From a virus (lineage: Duplodnaviria; Heunggongvirae; Uroviricota; Caudoviricetes), in the IMG/VR virus record IMGVR_UViG_2671181054_000001, positions 1-20,122 of that record: a stretch of 20,122 bases of DNA. One strand, given 5' to 3'. A program made the translations under genes and the position numbers. The notes beneath the pieces are model-generated. The model was not told the DNA's origin. It ran no database searches and saw nothing but the letters and a program-made list of their open reading frames with translations. This document shows positions 1 through 18,221 of the stretch, piece after piece (the first letter of the stretch is position 1; every line of letters begins with the position of its first letter).

Positions 1-411
1 ATGGCTCAGGTTGCCCTTTTTAAAGAAATATTTGATCAAGTGCGGAAAGATTTAAACTGTGACCGATTTTACTCTGAACTAAAACGTCACAATGTCTCAC
101 ATTACATTTACTATTTAGCCACAGGTAATATTCACGTTGTATTGAAAAATGATAACGCAGTGTTAATAAAAGGACTTGAGGAGGTTGTGAATGTTAAATT
201 TCGCAGAGACACGCGACTTATAGAAACTTACTCTCATAAGTTGAAATCAAGAGAAATCACATTTCATGAATACAGGGAAAATCTGGCTAAGGCTGGAGTT
301 TTCCGATGGGTTACAAATGTCCATGAACACAAAAGGTATTACTATACCTTTGACAACTCATTATTGTTTACCGAAAGCATTCAGAACACGACACAATTTT
401 TTCCACGCTAA
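1..411 (+). CDS. DUF1398-family prophage protein (YbcV/YdfO-like), 136 aa
   Basis: 136-aa ORF starting at window edge; size and position next to bor match the DLP12 ybcV arrangement as I recall it. Assignment is from memory. Confidence 0.5.
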
Positions 412-635
412 ACCATATCGCCCGGTTTAATCCCCCTCACTATCCGGCACTCCCACACAGGAGTTACCAGTCGGTACTGAGGACATAGTTAATCCGGGAA
501 TACAATGAAAATACAGCACATCTGGCATACTTTAATAAACATTAAAAATATGAGATTTCAACTCATTGTTTAGGTTTTGTTTAAATTTCTACAAATACGA
601 TTCAACAACCTTAAAAACACAACGGGAATAACACT

Positions 636-929
636 ATGAAAAAAACGCTACTCACTTTCACGCTGGCCCTGCTTATCTCTGGATGTGCTCAACAGACGTT
701 TACTGTTGAAAACCAACCGACAACAGTAACACCGAAGGAAACCATCACTCATCATTTCTTCGTTTCTGGAATTGGTCAGAAGAAAACTGTCGATGCAGCC
801 AAAATTTGTGGTGGCGCAGAAAAAGTTGTTAAGACTGAAACCCAGCAAACATTCGTAAATGGATTGCTCGGTTTTATCACTTTCGGCATTTATACTCCGC
901 TGGAAGCTCGGGTATATTGCTCACAATAA
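636..929 (+). CDS. bor: Bor-family outer-membrane lipoprotein (serum-resistance, Bor/Iss family)
   Basis: 97 aa; signal peptide plus lipobox LLISGC; near-identical in layout to lambda Bor (CAQQTFTV...ETITHHFFVSGIGQKK...EARVYCSQ); located opposite the lysis genes as in lambda. Confidence 0.9.
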   Translation: MKKTLLTFTLALLISGCAQQTFTVENQPTTVTPKETITHHFFVSGIGQKKTVDAAKICGGAEKVVKTETQQTFVNGLLGFITFGIYTPLEARVYCSQ

Positions 930-936
930 TATCATA

Positions 937-960
937 AGTTGCCCATCTCGATGGGCAACT
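937..960. terminator. Perfect 10-bp stem / 4-nt loop hairpin directly after bor stop; possible terminator, no clear U-tract
   Basis: agttgcccat-ctcg-atgggcaact at 937-960, 8 nt after the bor stop codon. Confidence 0.3.
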
Positions 961-1246
961 CTATCTGCACTTGATGCGCAAATAACAACCTCCAAAAGAA
1001 AAATAGCAAAAGCAGACCGTGTCACATAAAGACGTGCAGTTACTTTCTTTTCTATTCCTTTCATAACGGACGGCTTTAAAAGAAGATTTATACGATCTGC
1101 CGAGGATTTTTCTCTGTACTCACTGATTCATATTCTCCTCTTTGTTTGGTATAAAAACCGAACTCTTTCTCCAGTCGTTTTTCTTGTTCGGTAAGTCTAA
1201 TAACAAGCTAACCGCAGGTTGGATTTACTGGCCTCATTAATGCCAA

Positions 1247-1792
1247 CTACACCACCACGCGCTCTTTCATCCAGCCATACACGAACGATTCATTAGCCTC
1301 ACGTTTTTCTGCCAGTTCAAGGTAGCGATCTCCCTGCGTACAGTTTAGCGCTGTCAGAATCACCAACTCACCATCCCTGCCACGTTTTGACAAATAGGCG
1401 CGTAACGCATTAATGGTACGTGGGCCGATACAACCATCTGCATCAATGTCCGGATACAACTCTCCTTTCTGGTTAAATACATTAAGCCAGCGCTGAAGCA
1501 TTCTGGATGCCACTGACGGCCCCATGTTTACGCCGGTATCACACAATTCAGCAGCGATCTCCGGAGACAGGCTCGCAACCTTGTGAAAACGTGGCCCGTA
1601 CCAGTAGTCCGCTTCAAGAATTTCGAGGGCCTGCCCACGCGTCAGGTCACGAATATCCCCCTGATAACCGTGTGCACGGGCAACTTTTCCAGTAATGCCC
1701 CATTTAGTCGGACCACCTTTATCATCAGGGTGGTTGACGTAGCCGCCCTCTTTGCCAAGAACAGCATCAAAAATTTCATCTTTCGACTTCAT
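1247..1792 (-). CDS. Endolysin, glycoside hydrolase family 108 N-terminal domain with C-terminal peptidoglycan-binding domain
   Basis: Start taken at internal Met (MKSKDEIF) preceded by AAGG and abutting the upstream gene stop (TGAgATG). Motif EGGYVNHPDDKGGPTKWGIT is characteristic of GH108 lysozymes. No N-terminal hydrophobic segment, so not a SAR endolysin. Confidence 0.8.
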   Translation of the reverse strand: MKSKDEIFDAVLGKEGGYVNHPDDKGGPTKWGITGKVARAHGYQGDIRDLTRGQALEILEADYWYGPRFHKVASLSPEIAAELCDTGVNMGPSVASRMLQRWLNVFNQKGELYPDIDADGCIGPRTINALRAYLSKRGRDGELVILTALNCTQGDRYLELAEKREANESFVYGWMKERVVV

Positions 1793-1793
1793 C

Positions 1794-2072
1794 TCAGCGC
1801 CTTCGTAATACAAAGATTTTTGAAACGTTCCCACGAGCACGAACCACCAGCACGCAGAACAGCAGGTTAAAAAACACTTCCAGCCAGCCCGTTGCTAACG
1901 GGCGACCACACAGATAGCTGAGGGGCGCAAAGGCATACAGCAGCATCAGCAACCAGGCCAGCCATGACATCAGCGGTTTATGTCTGGAATCACGACGACG
2001 ATAAAAAAAGAGCGTCAGCACGATAACCGTGCATAACGCCACATTCAGCAATCCGGGAAGGTTACTTAACAT
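1794..2072 (-). CDS. Small membrane protein of lysis cassette (holin/antiholin-like), about 92 aa
   Basis: Two to three hydrophobic helices (LLNVALCTVIVLTLFF, LAWLLMLLYAFAPL, VFFNLLFCVLVV); overlaps upstream holin by 11 nt and abuts endolysin start. Confidence 0.5.
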   Translation of the reverse strand: MLSNLPGLLNVALCTVIVLTLFFYRRRDSRHKPLMSWLAWLLMLLYAFAPLSYLCGRPLATGWLEVFFNLLFCVLVVRARGNVSKIFVLRRR

Positions 2073-2454
2073 TGCCGCCTCCTCCACCCCGCAGGCGGGA
2101 GAACAGGCCGGACACCAGCGATGCAATATCCTGCTGGTGGATGAACGAGAGAATCTTCACCGACACCACCGCCACCAGCACCGCACACAGAGCATCCGCC
2201 GATGTACCGTCATAACCTGTTTTTGATGCAATCCAGGCTGACAGCACATGCGCACCCAGCACGCCAACGATAAACGACACCAGAAAATGCGCTGCCACAC
2301 GCCAGGCAGATAGTGCCTGCGGCATTGTGGCCACAAACAGCGCCCCGGCAAATGCGCCAAACACAATCCCGAAATCCGTTCCGGTAAACAGCCCGAATAC
2401 CGTCGCCCCGCCGAGCGCCGCAGCCGTGCCGGAACCGGATAAGGGTTCAGACAT
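2062..2454 (-). CDS. Phage holin-like multi-TM membrane protein, about 130 aa
   Basis: Start at MSEPLSG with GGAG 7 nt upstream; Gly/Ala-rich hydrophobic helices; first gene of lysis cassette immediately after a terminator. Confidence 0.6.
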   Translation of the reverse strand: MSEPLSGSGTAAALGGATVFGLFTGTDFGIVFGAFAGALFVATMPQALSAWRVAAHFLVSFIVGVLGAHVLSAWIASKTGYDGTSADALCAVLVAVVSVKILSFIHQQDIASLVSGLFSRLRGGGGGNVK

Positions 2455-2471
2455 ACTTTTTCTCCTGTAAA

Positions 2472-2496
2472 TAAAAAAGGGCCACTGTCGGCCCGT
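2472..2496 (-). terminator. Rho-independent terminator (minus strand) immediately upstream of holin RBS
   Basis: GGGCC-actgtc-GGCCC stem followed on the minus strand by TTTTTTAT. Confidence 0.4.
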
Positions 2497-2582
2497 AAAA
2501 AAACAACACCCCGTCAAAGGCACCCGCAGATACCTTTTGTGTGGTGTTATCTGATGTGATGTGCGCCGGACGTGGCGCGGAT

Positions 2583-2608
2583 ATAAAAAAGGCCCGCCGC
2601 AGCGAGCC
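2583..2608 (-). terminator. Rho-independent terminator (minus strand) just after AraC-family gene stop
   Basis: Imperfect 6-7 bp GC stem (ggctcgc/gcgggcc on minus strand, one G-U) followed by TTTTTTATAT. Confidence 0.4.
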
Positions 2609-2633
2609 TGTTTTCAATGAGTGCAAAATTCAA

Positions 2634-3377
2634 TTATTCTTGAGTAACACTTAAACTCATCTCATTGAATGCAGCCATCCTGTAACCTGCCGGTGTAACA
2701 CCAAAATAACTCCTGAATACGCTGATAAAATAAGATGTAAAATTATAGCCACACTGAGCAGCGATTCTGTTGATGGCGCAACGAGATTGATTCAACAGCA
2801 TTGCTGCCATTCTCATTCTCTCTGTAAGCAACAACTCACTGAAACAGGTGCCTTCTTCTTTCAGTCTTTTTTTTAACAAACTTTCACTGATACATAACCG
2901 CGAAGACACATCTCTCAGAGTCCAGTTTGCTGCAATGTCCGTACGAAACAATGCACTAAGCCTGTCACTAATATTGCCAATACACGCGGTCAGAAACGAC
3001 GAAAACATTTTCTCTGATGAGAAAAACGCCAGACACGAAAAGGAAAGCATTTCCGCTAAATTGTCCGTATGAATCTTTTCCTCACAAAGATAATCAATCA
3101 GGATGCCCATCAATTCTGCCTTGGGAAAACTCACGCAAAGATATCGTGGTATTTGCCGGACTAAAACTACATCCTGTTTTTCGTCTCCACACAACAGGTA
3201 ACGGATAATTGTCGATTCACTGAGACTTATTCGCCGAAAACATTCCGAAAAGGGCAATAACGATCCAGCTCCCCCCCTGACAAGAAGTGCACTACCACTT
3301 TCAAGAGAGAGCTCTTTTCCTTCAAAGAGCACAACAAACGGGGAATGAACAAAAACAACAGAACAGGCTTCATTCAT
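2634..3377 (-). CDS. AraC-family transcriptional regulator, AppY/EnvY-like (about 248 aa)
   Basis: C-terminal double HTH typical of AraC family (WTLRDVSSRLCISESLLKKRLKEEGTCFSELL...CGYNFTSYFISVFRSYFGVTPAGY). Start chosen at MNEACSVVF (AppY-like N-terminus as recalled) because the longer frame would run through the upstream terminator. Confidence 0.75.
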   Translation of the reverse strand: MNEACSVVFVHSPFVVLFEGKELSLESGSALLVRGGAGSLLPFSECFRRISLSESTIIRYLLCGDEKQDVVLVRQIPRYLCVSFPKAELMGILIDYLCEEKIHTDNLAEMLSFSCLAFFSSEKMFSSFLTACIGNISDRLSALFRTDIAANWTLRDVSSRLCISESLLKKRLKEEGTCFSELLLTERMRMAAMLLNQSRCAINRIAAQCGYNFTSYFISVFRSYFGVTPAGYRMAAFNEMSLSVTQE

Positions 3378-3495
3378 ATCAATTGCCCTGACATTACTGG
3401 TCACAAGATAAGTATATATCGATTTACAAAAATACAAGCCGAAAGACCAGTATTCGCAACCACCAGCACGTTTTATGTTCTCTGCCGTTTTTCGG

Positions 3496-3523
3496 ACATA
3501 AAAAACCCGCTCAATGGCGGGTT
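3496..3523 (-). terminator. Rho-independent terminator (minus strand) 85 nt downstream of Q stop; tR'-like
   Basis: Minus-strand RNA AACCCGC-CAUUGA-GCGGGUU followed by UUUAUG; 7-bp stem. Confidence 0.55.
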
Positions 3524-3606
3524 GTATCAAAGTTCATGCGCTTGGTTCACCTCGCGATACAGCTTTGCGAAGCTTAGCAAAATTGAAGCGGTTTATGCGT
3601 AAAAAA

Positions 3607-4149
3607 TCAAGCCGTTTTTTGAGCGAATGATTCTCGCATAGGAATGTATAGCGCATACTCAGCAACGGCCAACCAATTAGCAATTCGCTTTTCGCATGTG
3701 CTAAAACACCACTCTGGGTGTGCATCATTTAGCAATTCAGCCATTTTGCGTTTGGTCATCCCCCGCCCCTCATACCGTTGACGAAGGACGCTAATCAATC
3801 CTGGATGCTCTGCCAGCACCTCACTTATGACCCGATCAATACATAACGCCTCTGCATCAGTACAATGCGCCAGCCAGCTCTTTTGCTTACCGTTAATCAT
3901 ATCCCGCAAAAAAGCCTCAAGTTCAGACTTGTTCAGACCTGCTTTTTTCATCCTCCGGAGCGCCTCGTTAATTGCCGTTTTTGTCAGCTTTTTAGAGGCC
4001 AACAACTGGTTGAACATATTCCCCGTCTTACCGCCGCCAATATACGACCAGCGCCCCCACATGCGCAGTTTTCCCTGAATCCAGACACTTTCCAGCGTGG
4101 TGAGACGAAGGTGTTCCCCGCTTTTGCCTATATTTGTTGGGTAAATCAT
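3607..4149 (-). CDS. Q: Late-gene antitermination protein Q-like (about 180 aa)
   Basis: Position immediately upstream of terminator and lysis cassette; start at MIYPTNIG with GGAGAAAGGAAGG upstream and ATGA overlap with the preceding gene. Family assignment is from position and general resemblance, not verified. Confidence 0.55.
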   Translation of the reverse strand: MIYPTNIGKSGEHLRLTTLESVWIQGKLRMWGRWSYIGGGKTGNMFNQLLASKKLTKTAINEALRRMKKAGLNKSELEAFLRDMINGKQKSWLAHCTDAEALCIDRVISEVLAEHPGLISVLRQRYEGRGMTKRKMAELLNDAHPEWCFSTCEKRIANWLAVAEYALYIPMRESFAQKTA

Positions 4150-4436
4150 AAATAACCTTCCTTTCTCCAGATTTCTTGCGTGCGAAAAACACCTTCTGCA
4201 TGCATCAGGCGTAATTCTTCTTTGGTGTAATCGCTTGTTTTTACCCGCCAGTCGATTAGATCGTGGCATGAGCTACAGGCTATCGCCGCCTGCATATCGT
4301 GTGGTTTTGTCGCTGTTCCGCACGTCCCCGCCAGCCTGTAATGCGCCAGCACAGAGGTTTCGGGATTGTGATTGCAGTAGCCAGGGATTCTGATCTGGCA
4401 CATCTGGCCTTTAGCCGCTTTACGTAAATTCACCAT
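4146..4436 (-). CDS. DUF1364-family nin-region protein (YbcO-like), Cys-rich putative metal-binding nuclease
   Basis: 96 aa; resembles DLP12 YbcO (LRKAA.G..CQ.RIPG.CN.NPETSVLAH.RL.G.CGT.TKP...A.IACS.CH) as recalled; TAATG overlap with upstream gene. Confidence 0.6.
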   Translation of the reverse strand: MVNLRKAAKGQMCQIRIPGYCNHNPETSVLAHYRLAGTCGTATKPHDMQAAIACSSCHDLIDWRVKTSDYTKEELRLMHAEGVFRTQEIWRKEGYL

Positions 4437-5035
4437 TACGCAAACTCCAGTAGTTGTGCGGCCACATTTACAACTTCCTCCTGAGAGGAGAATTTACGGA
4501 ACAGAATCCAGTTCCACAGCATATTCAGTACAGATTTATAAACCTGCTGAAACTCGACTTCGTCCATATTCGCAAACGCGATGGATTTCGCCCGACGCCC
4601 ACGGCTACCATCAGGATAAAAATGCTCTGTGTAAAATCCGGCCTGAATGGTTACCCACTCGCGGAAAGCCTCAAACGACTTTAGCAATGCCGTATCCCGG
4701 GTTCTGCGTGTCGCAACGGTATTCAGATATTGCTCTGCGGCACCACTCAGGGCTGGAGTATGTTCCCGACCTACTGATTCGCACAGGTAATCAACGAAGC
4801 CTGATACCAGTTCTCGTTCTCGAGGCGTGATCGCCCCACCGATCGGAGTCCAGTAATCGAATCCCAGTTGCAGGAGTTTGAAAAAACGCTTGTGGAATGC
4901 ATAGTTACGCACACGCTTAAAGTCTGCGTGTATCCACTCGCCTATTTTGATTTGATGCAGAAAATCGCAACTCTCCGGCGTCGCCGGGAGAAGTAAACCA
5001 GAAGAAGTTTGTTTGACCAGTTGTATATGCGCCAT
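4436..5035 (-). CDS. Phage nin-region protein, possibly DUF1367 family (199 aa)
   Basis: ORF with GGAGA SD 6 nt upstream of ATG; syntenic with YbcO-like gene. DUF assignment is from memory and uncertain. Confidence 0.5.
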   Translation of the reverse strand: MAHIQLVKQTSSGLLLPATPESCDFLHQIKIGEWIHADFKRVRNYAFHKRFFKLLQLGFDYWTPIGGAITPRERELVSGFVDYLCESVGREHTPALSGAAEQYLNTVATRRTRDTALLKSFEAFREWVTIQAGFYTEHFYPDGSRGRRAKSIAFANMDEVEFQQVYKSVLNMLWNWILFRKFSSQEEVVNVAAQLLEFA

Positions 5036-5106
5036 CGTAGTTCTCCGCTGGCGCAGTAGAATGGGTGTTCAGCCCGTTGTGCAGTATACCAGAATTAATA
5101 CCAATA

Positions 5107-5358
5107 CTAACAGGATGCTCTGACTCGCAATTCATCCAGCAGTTTATCATTTCCCATAATGTCACTTAACCTCATCGGTAAAAAAATTGCCTTTCGCCCA
5201 TTACGATACATCATTGATTTTTGGTTTTCAGGGAAGTAATCCATTTCGACTATAACTGACAGGTCATCACGACGTATGACTGCGTATTTGCTACTAAATA
5301 GTTTCTTTATTTTTTCCACGATGCCTCCAAGTTTATAAGTACAAGAGGTTATATCCAC
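5107..5358 (-). CDS. Hypothetical small protein (70-83 aa; start uncertain, possible GTG start with GGAGG)
   Basis: ORF in moderately AT-rich DNA at edge of the island; no family recognised; ATG at 5358 lacks an SD, internal GTG is preceded by GGAGG. Confidence 0.35.
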   Translation of the reverse strand: MDITSCTYKLGGIVEKIKKLFSSKYAVIRRDDLSVIVEMDYFPENQKSMMYRNGRKAIFLPMRLSDIMGNDKLLDELRVRASC

Positions 5359-6207
5359 ATAGAGACAAAAATATTAATCTTAAAAATATTTATTTCACGC
5401 CGTATATTTGTTTGTTTTATGCGCAGGCACAATGACTTTTATTTATTGTTATGCATATAATCAAATAAGTGATTGTTTTTTGCTCTTCAGATTCAGCAGG
5501 CAAAATGCATAAGGGCTGAAAGTGCTCGCATATAATACCTAATTTACTATCACTATATTCTAAGCACTTACCAGGTGATTAGGAACGGAACCCAGTACCG
5601 TGCGAATTTTAATTATGTGCTGGGACCAAACGGTCTGAAATGTCTTCATTGGTGACGATGATTACTCTTACTTTTTGATTTTAATATTCCGGCAATAATT
5701 TTAATAAAAATCTGTTTTAACTCTGCATTTTGCTGATTCTCCGAAGAAACTATCCATCTCTACGAGGAGATCAAATGTCGTTTCAAATCAGTATGTTGAG
5801 TATAAAAATCATGCCATAAATAGAAAACTAATTCGTCTGTATAGCAGTAATATTTCTGAAAATTAGTAGGATACTGTGGTAAAGAAATTCATTTCCAAGT
5901 AATTGGTAAACGCATTTGATTTGATTTTTTGTATGGGCTGTACTGGCTAAATAACATCCGATACTTGCCAGCACTAGCGATTGCTATTGATGAGAACAAT
6001 AGTGGCATCCGGCAAAGCATTTTGTAGGGGGGGTATCAAGCGGTGCTAACGCATTGCGGTAAAAATTCTGTCACACTTGGCGAGCAGGCATAGAGATGAT
6101 CTCATTGAATTGGTTGCAATCACAAAACACTATGCCTGCCTTTTCTATTCGCCCATTGCTGGGGAGTCCACAGCACTACTGCAGCTTTTTAGTACGATGA
6201 ACAGCTA

Positions 6208-8190
6208 TTAAGTAATTTCAGAGGTATCTATCACTTTCTCAGGAGTTGTAGATAACAATTCTTTCATACGCTGATCTTCGGGAGCACGAGAAGACAGGTG
6301 TTCTAAAAACTCACGCCATTGACGCTTTGCATCAGACAGAAGGTCATCCCAAGTTAATGTATACATTTCTTGTTCTCTCAATGTTTTCAGTTTCATATTT
6401 AACGTTGCATTTCTCTTTAAAAAATCATCAGCAACTAGATAACCGGAAACTCGCTTGAATGGACTTCCTGTTGCAGAGTCTAAATAAACTCTGAAAGTAT
6501 TAACATACTCCTCAAAGCGATTGATGTGATCTTTATCTATTTTCAGCCCTGGCCTCATGAATTCAAGTACAAGCAAATGTTCACCACTTGAAAGAACTAA
6601 GTCAACCCTTCCTTTAAAGCTTGGATCGTGTTCAATGTCTGATTCTTTTGCTGCTTCTCTAGCGATATGCTGGACATTTTTCTCAATAGCATAAGTCTCC
6701 CATTTTGGAGCTATCAGCCAAGGATTCTTCGCAATATAGTCTCGAACAGCATTTTCTAATTCTTTAGTGCGTATTCTAGTCTCAAGACCACTTATAGTAT
6801 CAAGCTTAGCTTTAACTGATTCTGCTGTGTGTAAAGCCTGAATTGTATTTGCTTCGATCAATATCTCAAGCAATTTCGTTTCATCCATATCAGGAACGGA
6901 AGCAACGCTTCTTATAAGCTCTTTTAGACGCCCTCCCTCCCATGCAGTGAGGATAGAGTTGCCTATATGCCTAAATTGCTCTGCACCGATTTGTTGGATT
7001 GATGCAATTCGTTTCAAAGCCATTATAACCGTTTTTTTCTCTACACCTAGTTTATCTAGCCTACTTCTGAAATCATCAATTTTACTTTCAATCAGTTTGG
7101 TTTTTTCATCTGCCCGCCGATCTTTCCAGATTTTTAATAATTCGCGAACACGTTTCTGTCCCCACTCTTCTAATTTGGCAAGGTGGTGACTACTCCAATT
7201 CAATCTTTGTCGTTCAGTAGAAATCACATCATCATTAAACTCATCCAAATAATCAGCAATTACAGCCCCTGTCATATATTCAGGACCATTTTGACTTGGC
7301 AACCCTCCAGTCAAGTTAAACATAAACGGCCTTTGTGCTAATTTTTTGTGAGCGTAAATCGAGATACCTTGCAACTCATCATCCTTGATTGTTTCTTTTA
7401 AGAAAAACACTCTCCATTTTATCTCATAACCATCAACGATTTCTTTTCCATACCCCAAACTGTCAATCTCCGTAAGAGAATCAGGTTTTTCATCTACAGT
7501 ATAATCTTTTGGAAAACTATATTCTGCAGTGGCAAGAAAATTTTCGACTGGCATGGGGGTATTATTAATACGAACTAAAAATTCATCGCCGCCAGAATTG
7601 ATCGCAAACCTTCTCGCCATAGATGTAGCAAAAGAAGACTCATTTAACAATCTATTTATTTTCAATGACTTAAGTGTTACTGTTGTTCCATGATTTTCTT
7701 TTTCTAATTCTGAAGGGCCTGTGCGGAAGGTCACATCAATAGCCATACTTTCAGTTTTAACGTAGTCATCTGACGATCTAATCTTATTTATATCCAAAGT
7801 AAAACTAGTTTTTTCACCTGTTTCTTGGCTAGTAGTACAAATTTCTATAATCTCAGCAATACCAAAACCAGCAAACTTTCCGATACCTTTTCTTCCCATT
7901 AAGTCTCGATTGAATAATTTCGACTTCGCTACAGGATTATCTTTCCTTTTATCAAAACCAACCGTAAGAAATTTCTTTTGACATTCTTCAAATGTCATTC
8001 CAATACCATTGTCTTTTATAACAATAGTTCTATTTTCATGCGTGGGTAGTGTAATATTAACTTCGGTTGCATCCGCGTCCCAAGCATTAGAAACCATTTC
8101 AGCTATTGCTGCTGTTGGACTTTGATACATTTGAATACCTAAATGATCAATTATCCTACCATGAAAATTTAGAAATAGTTTATTATCCAT
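6208..8190 (-). CDS. GHKL (Bergerat-fold) ATPase-domain protein, 660 aa, MORC/MutL-like N-terminus with uncharacterised C-terminal region; candidate restriction/defence effector
   Basis: N-terminal motifs AIAEMVSNAWDADATEV (N-box, E-x3-N-A-x-D), IKDNGIGMT (D-x-G-x-G), GRKGIGKFAGFG (G-rich lid). Start ATG has GAGG 6 nt upstream and overlaps the MTase stop by 8 nt. Confidence 0.85.
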   Translation of the reverse strand: MDNKLFLNFHGRIIDHLGIQMYQSPTAAIAEMVSNAWDADATEVNITLPTHENRTIVIKDNGIGMTFEECQKKFLTVGFDKRKDNPVAKSKLFNRDLMGRKGIGKFAGFGIAEIIEICTTSQETGEKTSFTLDINKIRSSDDYVKTESMAIDVTFRTGPSELEKENHGTTVTLKSLKINRLLNESSFATSMARRFAINSGGDEFLVRINNTPMPVENFLATAEYSFPKDYTVDEKPDSLTEIDSLGYGKEIVDGYEIKWRVFFLKETIKDDELQGISIYAHKKLAQRPFMFNLTGGLPSQNGPEYMTGAVIADYLDEFNDDVISTERQRLNWSSHHLAKLEEWGQKRVRELLKIWKDRRADEKTKLIESKIDDFRSRLDKLGVEKKTVIMALKRIASIQQIGAEQFRHIGNSILTAWEGGRLKELIRSVASVPDMDETKLLEILIEANTIQALHTAESVKAKLDTISGLETRIRTKELENAVRDYIAKNPWLIAPKWETYAIEKNVQHIAREAAKESDIEHDPSFKGRVDLVLSSGEHLLVLEFMRPGLKIDKDHINRFEEYVNTFRVYLDSATGSPFKRVSGYLVADDFLKRNATLNMKLKTLREQEMYTLTWDDLLSDAKRQWREFLEHLSSRAPEDQRMKELLSTTPEKVIDTSEIT

Positions 8191-9232
8191 AATCCGCCTC
8201 GTTTTTAGTTATATGTTCTTTGATAAGTTCAGCATGACGCTTAATGAATTCAGGGGGCAATGCATTCCCTATCATCAAAGCAGCCTTGTCTTTACCAAAT
8301 TGAATAGGAAAATAGTAATCACTCGGAAAAGTTTGTAATAATGCAGCCTCTCGAAGAGTTATTGCTCTATCTTGTTCAGGATGTAAAAAACGACCTTTTG
8401 AAGGATTAGTACATCCACTCGTAATAGTTGGAGCTACATCATCCCACCTCATACGACCGTAAACATCGCGAAAACCATTTGGATATCGTTTATGACATGG
8501 CAGCCAATACTCGTAAGGAAGTTGAGAGCGGCTTCCCCCATCCTTAGGAATAAGACTTATAATTTTTTTAACCTTCTCAGTTCTTCTTTCTAATATATTG
8601 TGCAGCGGATCATTGCTATTTTCAGGTCGAGCCAAATGGCCTATTGCATCGCGCACAGTTATTAAATTACTATTTTTTTGAGCACGAGTAAGCTCTCCGT
8701 ATCGCGAAGCAAGTAGTACCATGCGCTTACGTCTTTGTGGCACACCAAATTTACTAGCATCTTCAATTAAAACTGAATTATCATCGATATGATAACCCAA
8801 TTTCTTAAGCTCCGAAGTAAACATGTTTATTCGTTCGTCAAATGCCAAAGCTGGTACATTTTCAACCATTACAACTTTTGGAAAAAAGACTTTAACAAAA
8901 TCTAAAAAATTAAAAATAAGTTCATTTCTCTCATCAAAGACAGCTACTGTTTTATTTTTTGTTCTTAACGAAGAAAATCCTTGACATGGTGGACAACCTG
9001 CCAACAAATCCAGTTCACCTTGCTGAATTTTTAATTGTTTCATTAATTCATCTGGTGATATATTTTTTATATCCCCATTTATTAAGTTAACATCCGGATG
9101 GTTGATTCTATAGGTTTCAGATACAATAGCTTCTTTTTCGATTGCTGATATGACATCAAAGCCAGCCATTTTTAGACCAACTGTCAAACCACCAGCGCCA
9201 CAAAAAAGATCAATTGCTTTCATTTTATGCAT
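8183..9232 (-). CDS. DNA (cytosine-5)-methyltransferase, Dcm-type (349 aa)
   Basis: Canonical m5C MTase motifs: I DLFCGAGG, IV GCPPCQGFS, VI MVENVPAL, VIII QRRKR, X GNALPP. Start could be M1 (9232) or M4 (9223). Confidence 0.9.
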   Translation of the reverse strand: MHKMKAIDLFCGAGGLTVGLKMAGFDVISAIEKEAIVSETYRINHPDVNLINGDIKNISPDELMKQLKIQQGELDLLAGCPPCQGFSSLRTKNKTVAVFDERNELIFNFLDFVKVFFPKVVMVENVPALAFDERINMFTSELKKLGYHIDDNSVLIEDASKFGVPQRRKRMVLLASRYGELTRAQKNSNLITVRDAIGHLARPENSNDPLHNILERRTEKVKKIISLIPKDGGSRSQLPYEYWLPCHKRYPNGFRDVYGRMRWDDVAPTITSGCTNPSKGRFLHPEQDRAITLREAALLQTFPSDYYFPIQFGKDKAALMIGNALPPEFIKRHAELIKEHITKNEADYG

Positions 9233-9268
9233 TCCATTCCATCATGTATACTATGAATCTAATCGAGA

Positions 9269-9297
9269 ATCATATGAAATTGATAGGCTTTTTACAA
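9269..9297 (-). promoter_or_regulatory. Candidate sigma70 promoter for MTase-GHKL operon
   Basis: Minus strand TTGTAA - 17 bp - TATGAT, about 35 nt upstream of the MTase start codon. Confidence 0.3.
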
Positions 9298-9625
9298 TCT
9301 TTATCATCTATTTTTATTGTCTTATGTAATTTTCTTGGTTATTGGTGGAATGTAATCTCATCTGATATCCTATGTCCTAATAGATAGCAATTCTGTATGA
9401 GCTTTTATTGCCCTCATCAGACGCTTCCTTTATGAAGTTGTTCCGAGCAATGCAGCATCGCATTTATCACTTCTTTTATGTGGCTTATGTGTCACGGCGT
9501 TGTTGCCATCAAGGCCAGCGAACATTCCGTGCCTGTCAAACGCCGTGCAAAGCTCGTTAAACGCCCACGTCCGAACTTCGGCAAGGAAGGCATTGGCGCG
9601 GTCAACTCCTGGTAGCCAATCCTGC

Positions 9626-10048
9626 TCACTGCGCCGCCCCCTGAAAATGCCCCTGATAGAATGCCAGCACACGCTGCATAACTTCGCTCTTCCGGCACTC
9701 GCGACAGATTATGTTCATACGCCTGTCATAGCGGCGTATTTCTCCGTCTGGTAATGACCAGATAAGGTCAGGATCAACCACAACCGTTTTTTTCACCTTT
9801 GCCCTGGATAGTTTTTTGCGGGCGTTTTTCCAGTCCTTACGAGCCTGTTCAGAGGGAAATAACCCATAGCCAGAGTTGTATACATCGCCACTGGCAACCA
9901 ACTCTCTGGCAAGAATGCTCATCAGATATCTTGTCGCACCTGTCTTGGCCTCCAGTTGCCTTAACGTCTCGCGCCCACTCTGGCGTACCAGCTCAACAAC
10001 CTGCTCCTTAATTTTTTCACGCTCTTCCTGTGTAAAAACTTTTGCCAT
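9626..10048 (-). CDS. Hypothetical phage protein, possible winged-helix DNA-binding protein (140 aa)
   Basis: Start at MAKVFTQEE with GGAGG 6 nt upstream; C-terminal CRECRK motif; no confident family. Confidence 0.5.
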   Translation of the reverse strand: MAKVFTQEEREKIKEQVVELVRQSGRETLRQLEAKTGATRYLMSILARELVASGDVYNSGYGLFPSEQARKDWKNARKKLSRAKVKKTVVVDPDLIWSLPDGEIRRYDRRMNIICRECRKSEVMQRVLAFYQGHFQGAAQ

Positions 10049-10063
10049 AAGCGCCTCCGGCAA

Positions 10064-10825
10064 TCACTTTTCCGACACAATACGACAGGAGGAGTCGACA
10101 ATCTGTCGAACAATATCCCGGTACTTGTTCAGCTCCCGCAGCGCGGCGCAGACACGCTCCCACTTCTGGACATGATTTTTCGCCCGGCGCAGCTCACGGT
10201 TTGCCATGTGCAGCGATGGTAAAATCATGTCATCCGCCCGCGTTTCGGTAAACGATGGCAGCGACTGCACAATGTCCGCCACAGTTTCTGTTTTAATATC
10301 TTCCTGTGTTGCATCTTTCTGTACCGGCAACGCAACACCTGCTGGCTGAGGAAAGGCTTTAAAATCAGTTTCCGTTACCGATGCAGCTTTCGGCTCTGCT
10401 GGTAAATTATTGCCCGGTATGCAGTAACGAAATTTACCGTTCTGATTTACGCGAATCAGGCGTCCTTTGCTGATTGCCATTGCCAGCGTTGAAGCAAGTT
10501 TGCGGGATGTGGTACCGAACAGCGTAGCTAGTTCATCCGCCGTTTGTGGTCCGCGTTGTTCAATCGTCGCGGTTAAATCGCACTCTGAGATTTTCGCTAC
10601 TGTTGCCGTGGTGGTTTCTTCCGGCAGTTCTGCCTGCATTGGCTGTTCCTGCTGAACGTTGTTATCAGCCACACGCCAGGTGTACGCGCTTTTATCAACG
10701 AAACCAGCTTTTTTCAGTTCCCATAGTTCGTTCAGCACTTCTTCACGACTGATATCAAGTCGCGCAGCAAGTTCTATGGATGTGGCTTTTCCCATTGCTT
10801 TCAGTGCGTCAAAAACAGTCTCCAT
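10064..10825 (-). CDS. Phage protein with N-terminal winged-helix-like domain (DUF1627-like, YdaW-like), about 254 aa
   Basis: Start at METVFDALK with GGGAGGA 8 nt upstream; position after DnaC-like gene as in Rac ydaV-ydaW. Family from memory. Confidence 0.5.
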
Positions 10826-10847
10826 TAAAATTTCCTCCCGATAAAAA

Positions 10848-11594
10848 TTACTTCGCAGTTCCTGGCTGGACGACATTCGGACGCCAGCTCTCCCAGTTAA
10901 AATTCACCCATCGCCCGCCGTTCATGGTCATGCGATCCATAATCCGCTCGCCGAGCAATGTTTTCATGGCCTCATAGTTCAGGTTTGTCAGCATCCCCAC
11001 GCTGCGCATCGACGCTGTCCGGCGATCAACAATCTGGTGCAGTACCACCTGCTCGTTTTTTGTCTCGCGCTGAATGCCAATTTCATCAAGAACCAGCAGA
11101 TCCACTTCGCACAGTTCCCGCAAAAATTTTTCGCCTGATTGCCCGTCGTCATAGCTGGCGTGTAGAGCACTCATGACATCAGCCACAGTAACCACAATCA
11201 CTGTCTGGCCATCTTTCAGCAGACGATTCCCGATAGCCGCCGCCAGATGGTTTTTTCCGGTACCAGGTTTTCCGCTGAACGCAAAATTTGTACACCCGGT
11301 CATCAGTTCATCAGCGATAGATTTCGCCTGGCTCAACGCGTATCGCTGACCGTCGTTCTGCACCTGGTAATTCGCAAACGAGCATTTACGGTGCAACGGC
11401 TGGATGCCTGAGCGATTCAGAATTTTTTCCACCCGCAACTGGCGATTCAGGCGGTTGATCTCCTCGCTACGTTTCTGGCCTTCAGCAAGTTGCCACTCGC
11501 GCCACTCCGCTACCGTTCTGAATGGGGCGGTTACATGTGGCGGGGTCAGTCGGCGGATGCGTTCCAGAACGCCGCCTGTCGCAATATTTTTCAT
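10848..11594 (-). CDS. DnaC/IstB-like AAA+ helicase loader (replication protein, YdaV-like)
   Basis: Walker [16 protein letters not shown] and Walker [10 protein letters not shown]; 248 aa. Confidence 0.85.
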
Positions 11595-11600
11595 GGTTCG

Positions 11601-12389
11601 TTACCCCCTGAAGCCTGGCGGGATCGCACTGTCCGGCAACGAGACGGTGTTAACCTGTCTGAGCAACGTCTCAGGCCTAACACCTTTCGGCGCGAACAAG
11701 CCCTGGTATTCATTGGCGATGCTATGTCGAATCACCTGCTCAGGGGTAAAACCCTGCTGGCGGAATTTTTCCAGTTCCCGTATCGCCCCGTTAGCGCCCT
11801 GCTCCGTTCGAATCGGTTTTCGCAATGCCTGCCTGAACCGGACCCACTCATGCCAGAGTGTTTCCGGCAACCAATCGGGCAACTCAATAGCCTCCGGCTC
11901 GAATTTTTTAGATGCTCGTTTTTGGCGAGGGGGATTTAGGGGGAGATCAGTATTTATATCTTCCTCTTCCTCTTCCTCTGGTAACGCTTTTTGATCCGTT
12001 TGTGTAACGCTGGCAGCGTTACCTTTTCGTTTCAGTTTGCGTATTTTTGTAACCCTCTCGTTTGTAATCGCCCGTTTTTTAGAGCTTTTTCCGTTATGAC
12101 GTTCAAAGTTAGGTAGAGAAAGCCCACCGTTATTTTCGACCAGCCATCCAACCTGAATTAACGCATCAGCAAAACCAGCCATAAAAGTGATGCGATCTAT
12201 TGCACTTTTTGTAACGCCGCGAGCGTTACACTCTGCGTTACCGTCTATCATTTGTTGATCCGCCCATGCCCAGAAGCGAATGACTTTCCCTAATGCGGCA
12301 TCTGGATCAATATTCAGAATCTCAGCAAGCCTGAATATTTCCGGCTTATCCGGCGTAATAACCTCGAGCTTTATCCAGTTTGAAGCCAT
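11601..12389 (-). CDS. Replication initiation-module protein (YdaU/DUF1376-like), about 262 aa, with poly-Glu linker
   Basis: Start at MASNWIKLEV with GGTGA 7 nt upstream; directly precedes DnaC-like loader; contains internal palindromic repeats. Confidence 0.55.
   Translation of the reverse strand: MASNWIKLEVITPDKPEIFRLAEILNIDPDAALGKVIRFWAWADQQMIDGNAECNARGVTKSAIDRITFMAGFADALIQVGWLVENNGGLSLPNFERHNGKSSKKRAITNERVTKIRKLKRKGNAASVTQTDQKALPEEEEEEDINTDLPLNPPRQKRASKKFEPEAIELPDWLPETLWHEWVRFRQALRKPIRTEQGANGAIRELEKFRQQGFTPEQVIRHSIANEYQGLFAPKGVRPETLLRQVNTVSLPDSAIPPGFRG
12004..12022. repeat. 19-bp palindrome GTAACGC-N5-GCGTTAC, copy 1 (inside replication gene)
   Basis: gtaacgc tggca gcgttac; exact 7-bp arms. 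Confidence 0.8.
12211..12229. repeat. 19-bp palindrome GTAACGC-N5-GCGTTAC, copy 2 (inside replication gene), followed by an extra GCGTTAC at 12235-12241
   Basis: gtaacgc cgcga gcgttac; exact 7-bp arms. Confidence 0.8.
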
Positions 12390-12403
12390 ATTGTTTTCAC
12401 CTT

Positions 12404-12422
12404 GTAACGCTGTAAGCGTTAC
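12404..12422. repeat. 19-bp palindrome GTAACGC-N5-GCGTTAC, copy 3 (intergenic, overlapping RBS region of replication gene)
   Basis: gtaacgc tgtaa gcgttac; exact 7-bp arms. Confidence 0.8.
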
Positions 12423-12467
12423 ATTTAACTGATACCGAACAAAACAGTCCGGCACGATTAATTTCAA

Positions 12468-12890
12468 TCAATGCACTACGACAGAATCGCCGGGCGACCC
12501 ACCGCCGCTGAAATATGCTTTACGGTAAACGGCCTGGACTGCATCATCATGCGCATCAATTGCCGTACTCAACGCTTCCTGCGCCGCCAGTAATGCACGG
12601 CGTTCCAGGGTATCGAAGATGCAGAGTCGGTGACGCAGCTCGCGCGGAAGAATTGCCAGAACCGCAGGGATCAGTTTCTGAATTTTTTCCCTTTGCGCTT
12701 TCGTTTCACCTTTCAACCAACGGTGATAGATATTCTGCTGATTGTTCCAGTCCTTGCCTGGTACCAGGGGCAATTCGCCGCCCCCCTGGCGCAGATATTC
12801 TTCAGTAATTGCGTTAGCAACCCACGCCTGCCCTTTTTCGGCTGCTAGGGCTAACAACACTGATTCGATGTGCTCATGCCTGATTTTCAT
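12468..12890 (-). CDS. YdaT-like (CII-like) early regulatory protein, 140 aa
   Basis: Second gene of the rightward early operon, ATGA-coupled to the Cro-like gene; size matches Rac YdaT as recalled. Confidence 0.55.
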   Translation of the reverse strand: MKIRHEHIESVLLALAAEKGQAWVANAITEEYLRQGGGELPLVPGKDWNNQQNIYHRWLKGETKAQREKIQKLIPAVLAILPRELRHRLCIFDTLERRALLAAQEALSTAIDAHDDAVQAVYRKAYFSGGGSPGDSVVVH

Positions 12891-13129
12891 GAATCAACCG
12901 CTCCTATGCTGTTTTCGCTATGCTTACCGTCTGGGGGGAATACATCGTCAAGTCCACAATGAGCACCAAGCCGATTAAGGGTGGAAACAATTTTTCTGCA
13001 CTCCTCTAGCCCAGGGGTACGAAAATTTGCTTCGTAATTTGCCAGTCGGCTTTGTATCCACCCTAGCTGAACAGCGAGTTGTCTTTGAGACAGACCAAGT
13101 TGTTTTCGATATGTTGAAATTTTGTTCAT
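12887..13129 (-). CDS. Cro/YdaS-like HTH (XRE-family) early regulator, 80 aa
   Basis: HTH LGLSQRQLAVQLGWIQSRLANYE; GGAGG 6 nt upstream of ATG; divergent from repressor gene. Confidence 0.7.
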   Translation of the reverse strand: MNKISTYRKQLGLSQRQLAVQLGWIQSRLANYEANFRTPGLEECRKIVSTLNRLGAHCGLDDVFPPDGKHSENSIGAVDS

Positions 13130-13225
13130 TAAAAACCTCCGACGACAATTTTAAACACACCTTGTGTTTTACGGTCAAGCTATTTTGTGTTTTATATAAA
13201 TCACGATTCGTGATACAAGGACGAA
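13130..13225. promoter_or_regulatory. Divergent promoter/operator region between Cro-like and repressor genes
   Basis: Palindrome AAACACA-cct-TGTGTTT at 13153-13169; 10-bp direct repeat TTGTGTTTTA at 13162-13171 and 13185-13194; palindrome ATCACGA-T-TCGTGAT at 13200-13214; minus-strand promoter candidate TTGACC - 17 bp - TTTAAA. Confidence 0.6.
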
Positions 13226-13645
13226 ATGGAAAAAGAAAACGAAAAAATTGCCGCTAGTAGGCTCAATGACAAAATTGCAATGCGTCTTAAAGAGCGCAGG
13301 CAGAAGCTTGGTTTATCTCAAGGAAAACTTGCTGAAATCTGCGGATGGACGCAATCGCGTATAGGTAACTATGAGGCGGGCAGCAGAAATGTTGGAGTGC
13401 ATGATGCTGTCGTCCTGGGAAAGGCGCTGGGCATATCTCCTCCTGAGCTCCTCTTTGGGGAAAAAGACTCTTCTGAATTGTGGTTAAATGAATCCCAACG
13501 AAAACTTCTTGAGTTGTTTAACCAGCTACCGGGCTCAGAACAACAACGAATGATTGAGCTATTTGAAGTCCGGCTAAAAGAAATCGACGAGTATGTAGAA
13601 AAATATTTGAGGGGCAGGCTTAAAGATACCCCCCCACCGGAGTAA
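13226..13645 (+). CDS. CI/RacR-like XRE-family HTH repressor without peptidase S24 domain (139 aa)
   Basis: HTH LGLSQGKLAEICGWTQSRIGNYEAG; AAGGA RBS; divergent from cro-like gene; followed by a strong terminator. Confidence 0.75.
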   Translation: MEKENEKIAASRLNDKIAMRLKERRQKLGLSQGKLAEICGWTQSRIGNYEAGSRNVGVHDAVVLGKALGISPPELLFGEKDSSELWLNESQRKLLELFNQLPGSEQQRMIELFEVRLKEIDEYVEKYLRGRLKDTPPPE

Positions 13646-13675
13646 TGATCTTGCTATCACAGTAATATGCCAATC

Positions 13676-13700
13676 AGCCCGCTATCAGCGGGTTTTTTTT
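13676..13700 (+). terminator. Rho-independent terminator after repressor gene
   Basis: cccgc-tatca-gcggg stem followed by T8. Confidence 0.7.
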
Positions 13701-13730
13701 GTACCATCATCATATGACACGCCACCATAA

Positions 13731-13773
13731 AAACACACTTTGTGTTGACTTACAAAAACCATTTGTGTTTAAT
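13731..13773 (+). promoter_or_regulatory. pL-like promoter with overlapping operator for the leftward early operon
   Basis: Palindrome AAACACA-ctt-TGTGTTg at 13731-13747; TTGACT (13745-13750) - 17 bp - TTTAAT (13768-13773); half-site TTGTGTTTAA overlaps the -10. Confidence 0.4.
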
Positions 13774-13947
13774 AAGCATATCCAAACAACGCCCCACCGG
13801 AGAACGGCAGGACAATACCTCGAGTTATCCAGCCACTGAACAGGGCTAAGTAGCCAGCCTGAGGCATACGAACATGACGGCAGTTGTTGATTGATACAAA
13901 GCGCAGTAGATAAAACGTTCCGCCACCCGGCGTTAAGGGGAAAAAAG

Positions 13948-14082
13948 ATGGTGCATTACGAAGTAGTTCAGTATTTGATGGATTGTTGCGGTATCACTTA
14001 CAGCCAGGCTGTGCAGGCTTTACGTAGCAACGACTGGGATCTCTGGCAAGCAGAAGCCTCTATCCGCAACAACAAGATGTGA
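13948..14082 (+). CDS. Small early protein, 44 aa (YdaG-like by size and position)
   Basis: ATG at 13948 preceded by AAGGGG; first gene downstream of pL-like promoter. Confidence 0.4.
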   Translation: MVHYEVVQYLMDCCGITYSQAVQALRSNDWDLWQAEASIRNNKM

Positions 14083-14092
14083 GGTGCGAAAA

Positions 14093-14362
14093 ATGCAAAA
14101 AATCGACCTCGGCAATAACGAATCCATGGTGTGCGGCGTGTTCCCCAACCAAGATGGAACGTTCACTGCTATGACGTATACCAAAAGCAAAACGTTTAAC
14201 GTCGCTGGCTGGAAAGAAATTCAGGTGAGTGATATGGATTTCGACGCAATCATGAAAAAGGCTTACGAAGAATACTTCGAAGGCCTTGCCGAAGGCGAAG
14301 AAGCTCTCAGCTTCGGTGAGTTTAAACAGGCGCTTTCCAGTTCGACAAAATCTATCGACTAA
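14093..14362 (+). CDS. Hypothetical acidic early protein, 89 aa
   Basis: ATG at 14093 preceded by GAGGTG; tightly follows the preceding gene. Confidence 0.5.
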   Translation: MQKIDLGNNESMVCGVFPNQDGTFTAMTYTKSKTFNVAGWKEIQVSDMDFDAIMKKAYEEYFEGLAEGEEALSFGEFKQALSSSTKSID

Positions 14363-14373
14363 CGGGGTTAAAG

Positions 14374-14532
14374 ATGGAATTTAAAGATTTACCTCCAGAC
14401 ACTCAGAAAATCGCCGCAGAAACACTGAAATCTCTCATTTTGAACGGGGAGACAGAAAAGGTAGAGCCAGCTAAAAAACTGGCTCAAGAAATCAGAGAAG
14501 CCTTTATTGCTCTTTATCAGTCTTCTCCATAG
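14374..14532 (+). CDS. Hypothetical small protein, 52 aa (below the ORF-track size cut-off)
   Basis: ATG 11 nt after the previous stop; weak GGGG SD; read by hand: MEFKDLPPDTQKIAAETLKSLILNGETEKVEPAKKLAQEIREAFIALYQSSP. Confidence 0.3.
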   Translation: MEFKDLPPDTQKIAAETLKSLILNGETEKVEPAKKLAQEIREAFIALYQSSP

Positions 14533-14689
14533 CGGCTTGTTTTTCTTCTTTTAATATATTGCGAATTGTAATAACTGAATTAGCCGCCTCTGAAGGGGAT
14601 GACATTTTGCCAGCCCGAATTAACTCAACTGTTAAGTTCAAAGCTGCAACAGATGGATAGGTAAATGGGTTAATTAACTTGTCTGACAT
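14504..14689 (-). CDS. Hypothetical small protein, 61 aa, convergent to early operon
   Basis: Start at MSDKLINPF with GGAGG 5 nt upstream. Confidence 0.4.
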   Translation of the reverse strand: MSDKLINPFTYPSVAALNLTVELIRAGKMSSPSEAANSVITIRNILKEEKQAAMEKTDKEQ

Positions 14690-15256
14690 TTTATCCTCCA
14701 TTGAGGTTCTGGGTTAAAAATGGAGACCAACACGCTGCCACATGTGGTCGTGCGCCGGACACGGATAAGAATCCGGCACTGACAGTTTACTGAAAGGATA
14801 TATCCCTGAAAAGTCAGGGCATAACGCGAAAGCGCACGGCGAAGTTCGTCTCACTGTACGGTGTCGTTAAATTTAATTCGACCGTGCGCTTCCGGTTGTG
14901 GCACTCCGCGAAATGGCGCGGCGGTACGTATGGCGGGGTTATTCCTTCCCCCTGTTGAGGACACCGGGTTGTCAGGTTGACCATACGCCTGAGTGACAAC
15001 CCCGCTGCAACAACCCATGTTGATTACCTTTTGGCGGCATCAGTTTCATTGCTGGCTGATGTCCGTCCTTTTTAAAGTGAATTTTGTGATGCGGTGAATG
15101 CGGCTCAGCGCACGCGGAACAGTTAAAAAGGCCAGTTGACTTCCGTATTGGTTCTTATGGGTGGGTTCTCTGTATCCGGCGTTAATTGTTAACTGGTTAA
15201 CGTCACCTGGAGGCACCAGGCACTGCATCACAAAATTCATTGTTGAGGACGCGATA

Positions 15257-15445
15257 ATGGAAACATTATTACCAAACGTTAATACGTCTGAAGGTTGTTT
15301 TGAAATTGGTGTCAGTATCAGTAACCCTGCATTTACTGAAGATGCCATTAATAAGAGAAAACACGAACGGGAGTTATTAAATCAAATATGCATTGTTTCA
15401 ATGCTGGCCCGTTTACGTCTGATGCAAAAAGGATACTGGCAATGA
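15257..15445 (+). CDS. Hypothetical small protein, 62 aa
   Basis: ATG with GAGGA 7 nt upstream; ATGA-coupled to next gene. Confidence 0.4.
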   Translation: METLLPNVNTSEGCFEIGVSISNPAFTEDAINKRKHERELLNQICIVSMLARLRLMQKGYWQ

Positions 15446-18160: not shown

Positions 18161-18221
18161 TGTTCAACCGTCGCCAGTTGTCGTTGGTATTCTGCAACTG
18201 GCGCGTTCCGGAGTGATAGCC

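Follow-up and report, generated by a model that had tools for sequence, protein, structure and literature searches.

An AraC/XylS-family regulator gene in a hairpin-bounded cassette between the late antiterminator and holin genes of a lambdoid Escherichia coli prophage

We examined a stretch of DNA of 20,122 nt, called the window here, that corresponds to positions 1 to 20,122 of the IMG/VR virus record IMGVR_UViG_2671181054_000001. The subject of this study is a minus-strand gene of 744 nt at positions 2634-3377 of the window, which encodes a regulator of the AraC/XylS family (hereafter the AraC gene and the AraC protein). The surrounding part of the window holds the late-control and lysis functions of a lambdoid Escherichia coli prophage. 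A gene for a Q-like late antiterminator lies upstream of the AraC gene, a holin gene lies downstream, and the AraC gene is read in the same direction as Q and the lysis genes. An initial annotation, made from the sequence alone, had placed an AraC-family regulator in this Q-to-holin slot and had bracketed it with minus-strand terminators. Both statements were confirmed, the former by domain matches to the regulator and its two neighbors and the latter by three hairpins found at these places. The scan for terminators covered positions 123-20122 of the window, and folding was expressed as z-scores against shuffled sequences. The features of the slot are as follows.

2062-2454, minus strand: holin gene, Phage_holin_8 (domain match), the first lysis gene
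2473-2494, minus strand: hairpin C with T-run, stem 2494-2479, -10.8 kcal/mol, z -2.8
2584-2609, minus strand: hairpin B with T-run, stem 2609-2590, -16.8 kcal/mol, z -4.3
2634-3377, minus strand: AraC/XylS-family regulator gene, 247 amino acids; N-terminal domain of about 130 residues and C-terminal double helix-turn-helix at residues ~135-235
3405-3438, minus strand: conserved promoter-like block, TTGTAT at 3437-3432, 15-nt spacer, TATACT at 3416-3411
3497-3523, minus strand: hairpin A with T-run, stem 3523-3504, -11.2 kcal/mol, z -2.6
3582-3610, minus strand: candidate late promoter pR', read from the sequence, TTGATT at 3610-3605, 17-nt spacer, TTCAAT at 3587-3582
3607-4149, minus strand: Q-like late antiterminator gene of the DUF1133 family, 180 amino acids, Pfam DUF1133 356 bits

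The open reading frame (ORF) finder listed the AraC ORF as 2634-3530 on the minus strand with a TTG start. We rejected this 298-amino-acid ORF, because a reading from TTG 3530 passes through the terminator at hairpin A. The ATG at 3377 has the Shine-Dalgarno sequence AGGG 8 nt upstream, the N-terminus MNEACSV of its product aligns at residue 1 of GadW, YdeO, AppY and PatE, and five related cassettes in other backgrounds use the matching start codon. From these three results, we conclude that ATG 3377 is the true start.

The AraC protein matched the Pfam families HTH_18 (51.6 bits; cut-off 33.6) and HTH_AraC (49.9 bits; cut-off 26.6) at residues 158-233. It thus has the C-terminal domain of about 100 amino acids that defines the AraC/XylS family, with two helix-turn-helix motifs, both of which are intact. 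Its top match among solved structures was the DNA-binding domain of GadX (3mkl, E 2e-22). In an AlphaFold2 (AF2) model built from an alignment of 8 sequences, the mean predicted local distance difference test score (pLDDT) was 64.9, with values of 73-95 at residues ~135-235 and below 50 at residues 71-133. The protein falls into PHROG 1450 (189 bits), which groups phage proteins of unknown function, and is 100% identical to an E. coli protein (P0001) whose cluster members bear generic names only. A literature search by accession numbers returned no paper on the protein, and PADLOC gave no match to it.

In order to clarify the relationship of the AraC protein to characterized regulators, we drew the comparison genes of E. 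coli K-12 and O157 Sakai from annotated records and compared their products with it by BLASTP. The results were as follows.

ECs_0287 of prophage Sp1: 39% identity, 154 bits, E 4e-50, full length (the best full-length match)
GadW: 36% identity, 149 bits, full length
YdeO (K-12): 36.5% identity, 144 bits, full length
AppY: 30.5% identity, 119 bits, full length
PsrA (ECs1087): 40% identity, 112 bits, last 158 residues
GadX: 40% identity, 93 bits, DNA-binding domain only
EnvY: 39% identity, 79 bits, DNA-binding domain only (26% overall)

We infer that ECs_0287 is PatE (z0321), because it is the sole AraC-type gene in Sp1 and Sp1 is OI-8, the location given for patE in the review. The top NCBIfam model for the AraC protein was that of YdeO (NF007407), but the score of 146.9 bits is far below the equivalog cut-off of 348, and the protein is therefore not a YdeO. 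The GadX model (NF007432) gave 98.1 bits against a cut-off of 500 and covered residues 111-234 only. With PatE and the Psr proteins the identity was 37-40%, too low for orthology. In a neighbor-joining tree, the lineage of the window formed a separate deep branch adjoining the phage-borne group of PatE, PsrA and the paralogue of phage Lambda_ev203; in the same tree AppY paired with GadW, and EnvY with GadX. An alignment of 14 proteins had 20 invariant columns, including six in the first recognition helix (SESLLKKRLKEE in the AraC protein) and others in the CGY...SYF motif of the second helix-turn-helix. The residues ISVF that follow SYF (helix 6) are common to the AraC protein and PsrA and are different in PatE, YdeO, GadW and AppY.

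These comparisons place the AraC protein as a member of the GadW/YdeO/AppY/PatE/Psr subfamily that is an orthologue of none of these proteins. The initial annotation had called the regulator AppY-like, of the AppY/EnvY type, and had proposed a homology search for its closest characterized relative. By sequence this label is valid at the level of the subfamily only, because PatE, GadW and YdeO all outscore AppY and EnvY, and the closest characterized regulator is of the PatE type. The gene represents a new, uncharacterized lineage, although AraC regulators on prophages are already known and at least one of them, psrA, lies in this slot.

The likeness to PatE is not confined to the alignment. 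PatE is also an AraC-type protein of 247 amino acids borne on prophages and phages, it shares with the AraC protein an N-terminal M-x-x-x-C-S-V start and an SESLLK helix, and its gene has the sequence TATACT 33 nt before the ATG, as does the AraC gene. In contrast, patE is a paralogue that lies at the tail-fibre/integrase end of the phage rather than between Q and the holin, and the 320 nt upstream of it showed no hairpin. Phage mEp332 carries a gene 99% identical to the PatE gene, phage ev099 has an equivalent gene in the same slot, and the PatE-type genes of Sp1, mEp332 and ev099 are all at the tail-fibre/integrase end.

PsrA and PsrB (z1789 and z2104; PsrA is ECs1087 of Sakai prophage Sp4), which are 90% identical to each other, are likewise AraC-type proteins on lambdoid prophages. 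The psrA gene shares the cargo region with the AraC gene, since it lies 3' of the Sp4 antiterminator with tRNA genes after it, and PsrA also shares the helix 6 sequence SYFISVF. The Psr genes in enterohaemorrhagic E. coli (EHEC) are reported to be tied to effector loci and Pch regulators (PMC10877973), none of which was seen in the window. The annotated PsrA (195 amino acids; Sakai Sp4, L002 18804-19391) lacks about 50 N-terminal residues that are present in the AraC protein and in all other members of the family. GadW and YdeO have the same architecture and length as the AraC protein but are core-genome regulators of the AR2 acid-resistance system of K-12 under the control of EvgAS/GadX, not phage cargo. 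AppY is a prophage-borne member of the subfamily with the N-terminal CSV motif, but its gene follows the tail-fibre genes of DLP12, in which the quuD-essD slot holds nmpC.

Published work on these relatives gives an indication of possible targets. PatE activates the gadE/hdeAB acid-resistance genes (PMC10877973), AppY activates gadE and AR2 genes (PMC10057817), and PsrA and PsrB act via GadE/YhiF (PMC10877973, PMC8565820). As a group, these prophage-borne AraC regulators activate gadE/hdeA (PMC10877973, PMC10057817). By analogy, promoters of the gadE/hdeAB type are likely targets of the AraC protein as well, because PatE, PsrA/B, AppY, GadW and YdeO converge there (PMC10877973, PMC10057817).

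We then consider how the gene is inserted into the prophage. The boundaries of the cassette were taken as the positions where similarity stops in pairwise BLASTN. E. coli 1303, which has another Q type, is 99% identical to positions 1-3523 of the window, that is, up to the first base of hairpin A, and is unrelated past it. In Ecol_316 and ETEC4085, which have the same DUF1133 Q and carry tRNA/TerB cargo, the similarity that starts from Q ends at 3502, the last base of hairpin A. The limits 3523 and 3502 indicate that the AraC cassette and the Q module overlap at hairpin A. In C41 (L011) and RM10740 (L013), hairpin B (2583-2608) flanks a tRNA insert on both sides, and in ETEC4085 (L016) it also separates the tRNA cargo from TerB. 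The presence of the AraC gene is variable: over window positions 3502-4200 Q is 97-99% identical in two prophages with other cargo (L015 and L016). The cargo seen in the slot in four loci is listed below.

Ecol_316 (L015): tRNA-Thr/Gly alone
ETEC4085 (L016): tRNA-Thr/Gly, TerB and DUF3927
RM10740 (L013): nmpC/ompC-like porin, AraC gene and tRNA-Gly
L019: AraC gene, TerB and DUF3927

A chimeric query made of the 5' end of the holin gene and the 3' end of Q found an empty Q-holin junction in 0 of 5426 complete E. coli genomes. As this Q was joined directly to this holin in none of them, the slot is always filled, and its cargo varies.

Genes of this kind are called morons, a concept that reportedly comes from Hendrix and colleagues. 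Lambdoid morons and the AraC cassette have in common a deviant base composition, a terminator of their own and variable presence. The GC content was 0.385-0.46 over positions 2601-3500, compared with 0.55-0.575 in the holin gene and about 0.48-0.50 in Q, and hairpin B is the terminator belonging to the gene. Known morons share the Q-S slot with the AraC cassette, namely stx in Shiga toxin (Stx) phages (stx2AB in Sakai Sp5) and nmpC in DLP12. On the basis of these sequence comparisons, the AraC gene is an exchangeable, hairpin-bounded cassette of the moron type, and the proposals in the initial annotation that it is a moron and that it occupies the position of stx and nmpC were correct. The cassette differs from stx and nmpC in that its cargo is a transcription factor instead of a toxin or porin, and in that its own promoter is a candidate one. 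The bounding of the cassette by hairpins is notable but is in line with the accepted mosaicism of lambdoid phages.

The position of the gene is conserved. In the annotated genomes and contigs, the AraC lineage was always found 3' of a late antiterminator on the same strand. A Q gene was present upstream in 42 of the 44 IMG/VR loci, at a distance of 0.8-2.2 kb, and in 9 of 9 other related loci with upstream flank (51 of 53 overall). The Q proteins belong to three unrelated families: DUF1133 (A17, C41 and A19), a quuD-like type of about 127 amino acids (1303, RM10740 and L019) and PF03589 Antiterm (L017). The Q-like protein of the window also matched Phage_antitermQ (27.1 bits; cut-off 26) and PHROG 753, 'anti-termination protein Q-like' (267 bits). 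On the downstream side, holin_8 in the IMG/VR loci lies about 180 nt past the AraC stop codon, or further away after TerB/tRNA cassettes. In phage Lambda_ev203 and strain 118UI the Q-S slot holds a different AraC paralogue that is 36% identical. About 100 further complete genomes matched a short stretch of the gene at 74.7% identity, a value equal to that of 118UI, the one genome of this group whose context was seen; by this similarity, these genomes may carry the ev203-type paralogue.

Full-length matches to the 744-nt gene, with a nucleotide identity of 90% or higher, occurred in 65 of the 5426 complete E. coli genomes (about 1%), and the 65 carriers fell into two allele groups of about 99% and 91% identity. 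Many of the listed carriers came from cattle, buffalo, pig and farm samples, in a raw listing that includes the sampling background. The lineage is also found in 46 IMG/VR viral contigs, in agreement with its location on a lambdoid prophage here. No close relative was found in species-representative genomes, in a scan that is not informative on distant relatives. In all pairs of six alleles, the ratio of nonsynonymous to synonymous substitution rates (dN/dS) was 0.22-0.40, with dS up to 0.58, and these values indicate that the gene is under purifying selection. The possibility raised in the initial annotation that the gene is a pseudogene in related strains was not borne out by the full-length copies and dN/dS values, broken alleles being few.

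The three hairpins were next compared among related loci. Hairpin A is located 84 nt past the stop codon of Q, and hairpin C is 18 nt before the start codon of the holin gene. Among the hairpins listed by the scan, four had an unbroken run of at least five T directly after them, and three of the four were A, B and C. All 8 annotated cassettes and all 44 IMG/VR cassettes, which together are the 52 that keep the leader, have a hairpin with a T-run 108-130 nt upstream of the ATG. In A19 (L012) and a metagenome contig (L020), the sequence of the hairpin A stem is altered and still pairs. The retention of the upstream hairpin in every related cassette, with stems that differ in L012 and L020, indicates that the terminators are more than chance. 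After the AraC stop codon, a T-run with a foldable hairpin was present in 36 of the 44 IMG/VR loci. The holin leader at 2466-2578 (minus strand), which includes hairpin C, is 75% conserved before an unrelated holin gene, essD, in Ecol_316 (L015 3755-3864). This conservation suggests that the leader is a common control element of lysis genes, within which hairpin C would be a putative second barrier.

Hairpin A is probably the terminator tR'. It goes with the Q module in prophages that have other cargo, as seen from the stop of similarity at 3502, and for this reason tR' is its most likely identity. The Q gene and hairpin A are present together and move together, and the promoter between them is a candidate. 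This candidate pR' lies just past the stop codon of Q, next to the palindrome AGCTTCGCAAAGCT. A consensus promoter scan did not call TTGATT-N17-TTCAAT. The element is retained in A19 (L012), although a plus-strand gene there parts it from a 75%-identical DUF1133 Q. Transcription from the candidate pR' that ended at hairpin A (3497-3610) would give lysogens a leader of about 78 nt, a putative RNA comparable in origin to lambda 6S RNA or StxS. The pR' promoter of Stx phages is constitutively active, and in lysogens transcription from it stops at tR' (PMC7547250). When the whole window was searched against Rfam at E<=1, no match fell within 2400-3650.

The fourth clear terminator of the scan lies at 13676-13694 on the plus strand, just past a repressor-like gene (13226-13645), and its stem (AGCCCGC...GCGGGTT) is similar to that of hairpin A.

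The block 3438-3405 is located between hairpin A and the ATG and reads CTTG(C/T)ATTTTTGTAAA..GATATATACTTATCTT. Only 3 of its 34 positions are variable across six cassettes, whose coding dS reaches the value given above, and the block is present in 44 of 44 IMG/VR loci. The TATACT within it has the same distance to the ATG as in patE; in the ev203 paralogue the distance is 36 nt, and the element there is CTATACTTA. The TATACT region resembles the sigma-S -10 consensus. In stationary phase, both patE and rpoS are more highly expressed (PMC10877973). We therefore regard the block as a conserved candidate for the AraC gene's own promoter, which gives indirect support to expression independent of Q.

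What was observed directly comprises the gene and the family to which it belongs, the hairpins, the conservation of position, the limits of the cassette and the purifying selection. We consider the following reading of these observations reasonably probable: the AraC gene would be a lysogenic-conversion cassette directed at the host, which encodes an activator of the GadW/YdeO/AppY/PatE/Psr branch and has a promoter of its own that is active in the lysogen. There, the late promoter past Q would fire and its transcripts would be halted at hairpin A (3523-3504) as tR', so that hairpin A would shield the AraC gene from them. The regulator would be transcribed from the promoter in block 3438-3405, of which the -10-like TATACT is sigma-S/sigma-70-like. 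This transcript would end at hairpin B (2609-2590), with hairpin C as a second stop before the holin gene. The protein would bind DNA via its two helix-turn-helix motifs and act on host promoters, by analogy those of the gadE/hdeAB acid-resistance (AR2) regulon. Upon induction, Q-modified polymerase would be expected to pass hairpins A, B and C, and the AraC gene would then also join the late transcript. The initial annotation had described the gene as an autonomous transcription unit that is not part of the late operon. The bracketing by terminators stands, but the description was overstated, because the gene is co-directional with Q, hairpin A is probably tR' and read-through by Q is expected.

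Several results weigh against the reading of a host-directed cassette with its own promoter. In the stretch from hairpin A to the ATG (3378-3503), the scan for sigma-70 consensus sequences yielded no promoter, and the candidate in block 3438-3405 has a short spacer of 15 nt and a weak -35. Hairpin B is degenerate in the alleles of 86-91% identity. The AF2 model is confident for the DNA-binding domain only, the identity to any characterized regulator is 40% or lower, and helix 6 varies among the paralogues. This low identity and the differences in helix 6 mean that the regulon could differ from GAD. In addition, a few strains have truncated or frameshifted alleles; examples are the strains C41 (158 amino acids) and C3/C7 and the proteins P0006 (158 amino acids) and P0007.

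The missing sigma-70 consensus would also suit another explanation, namely that the gene is a passenger of the late operon only. That is, it would have no working promoter of its own, would be made when Q permits lytic read-through, and would act, if at all, in a dying cell. The orientation shared with Q and the lysis genes agrees with this, and so does the fact that hairpin A belongs to the Q module where the cargo differs, which makes it tR' rather than an insulator specific to the cassette. We nevertheless think this explanation rather unlikely, because the 34-nt block with TATACT is near-invariant while dS reaches 0.58, and because patE has the same -10-like element at an equal distance. 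Furthermore, patE expression is reported to be higher in stationary phase and psrA transcripts are present in EHEC cultures without induction (PMC10877973, PMC13502914), and it is hard to see what purpose a dedicated terminator straight after the gene would serve if transcription were purely by read-through.

It is improbable that the targets of the regulator are lysis or late genes of the prophage itself, with an effect for example on holin expression or induction, instead of host genes. The varying neighbors speak against it: tRNA, TerB or other cassettes part the gene from the holin gene in many loci and three Q families lie upstream, so that there is no conserved partner among the phage genes. 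The paralogues PatE and AppY moreover target host genes, and their own genes map to the other end of the respective prophages (PMC10057817). What favors a phage target is the constant location of the gene in the late-regulatory region, from Q to the holin, and a report that some prophage transcription factors act on phage and host operons alike (PMC11879457). As for the truncated and frameshifted alleles, they might suggest that the gene is an inactive leftover decaying in a cryptic prophage. This idea is already largely refuted by the dN/dS values in all pairs, the full-length matches in 65 complete genomes and the two intact helix-turn-helix motifs that score above the Pfam thresholds, and we regard it as very improbable.

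A further reading concerns the slot as a whole. The slot could be an array of cassettes, in which hairpins A (3502-3523) and B (2583-2608) serve as recombination joints for AraC, tRNA, TerB and porin cargo, and the AraC lineage could be a separate, livestock-associated one with a regulon that is not simply GAD. In five comparisons the similarity breaks at the hairpins, and the tRNA inserts have a copy of hairpin B on either side. However, this reading is weakened because exchange at short boundary sequences is already accepted for lambdoid mosaicism, and we hold it as possible but doubtful.

The reading of a host-directed conversion cassette is of interest because PatE, PsrA/B and AppY feed into the acid-resistance network of the host, and in EHEC also into type III secretion and persistence in ruminants. 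If the AraC protein does activate AR2, more phage genes would be aiding the survival of E. coli through the stomach. If its targets are different, the lineage would give a measure of diversification in this paralogue family. No long-standing question hinges on the AraC cassette.

The genes around the slot are consistent with the lambdoid nature of the prophage. Upstream of Q, the order of genes is as follows.

4436-5035, minus strand: DUF1367 gene
4146-4436, minus strand: YbcO-type nuclease gene, between the DUF1367 gene and Q

Past the first holin gene, the lysis genes continue with those listed below.

1794-2126, minus strand: second holin gene, Phage_holin_3_7 (domain match)
1247-1840, minus strand: GH108 muramidase gene (domain match)

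Bor and DUF1398 genes lie on the plus strand beyond the lysis genes, and the rest of the window contains an integrase gene, the repressor-like gene and replication genes. ARAGORN found no tRNA genes in the window. The nin region (6208-9232, minus strand) contains a type II restriction-modification pair.

8183-9232, minus strand: C5 cytosine methyltransferase gene, PADLOC MTase_II 272 bits
6208-8190, minus strand: gene for a HATPase-type enzyme of 660 amino acids, PADLOC REase_II 177 bits

In the early-left region (15018-15289, plus strand), the Rfam models of DicF (28.6 bits; gathering threshold 48) and STnc100 (30 bits; gathering threshold 47) matched below their thresholds.

A Chi site at 3460-3467 looked conserved and was considered as a hallmark of the cassette leader, but it was dropped, because this site reads TCTGGTGG in L017. 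The Chi sequence (GCTGGTGG) occurs seven times in the 20 kb, compared with 0.52 expected from shuffled sequences. Six of the seven sites are on the minus strand and four are in the lysis/AraC region; their positions are 1844-1851, 2133-2140, 2172-2179, 3460-3467, 9189-9196, 17592-17599 and 19408-19415.

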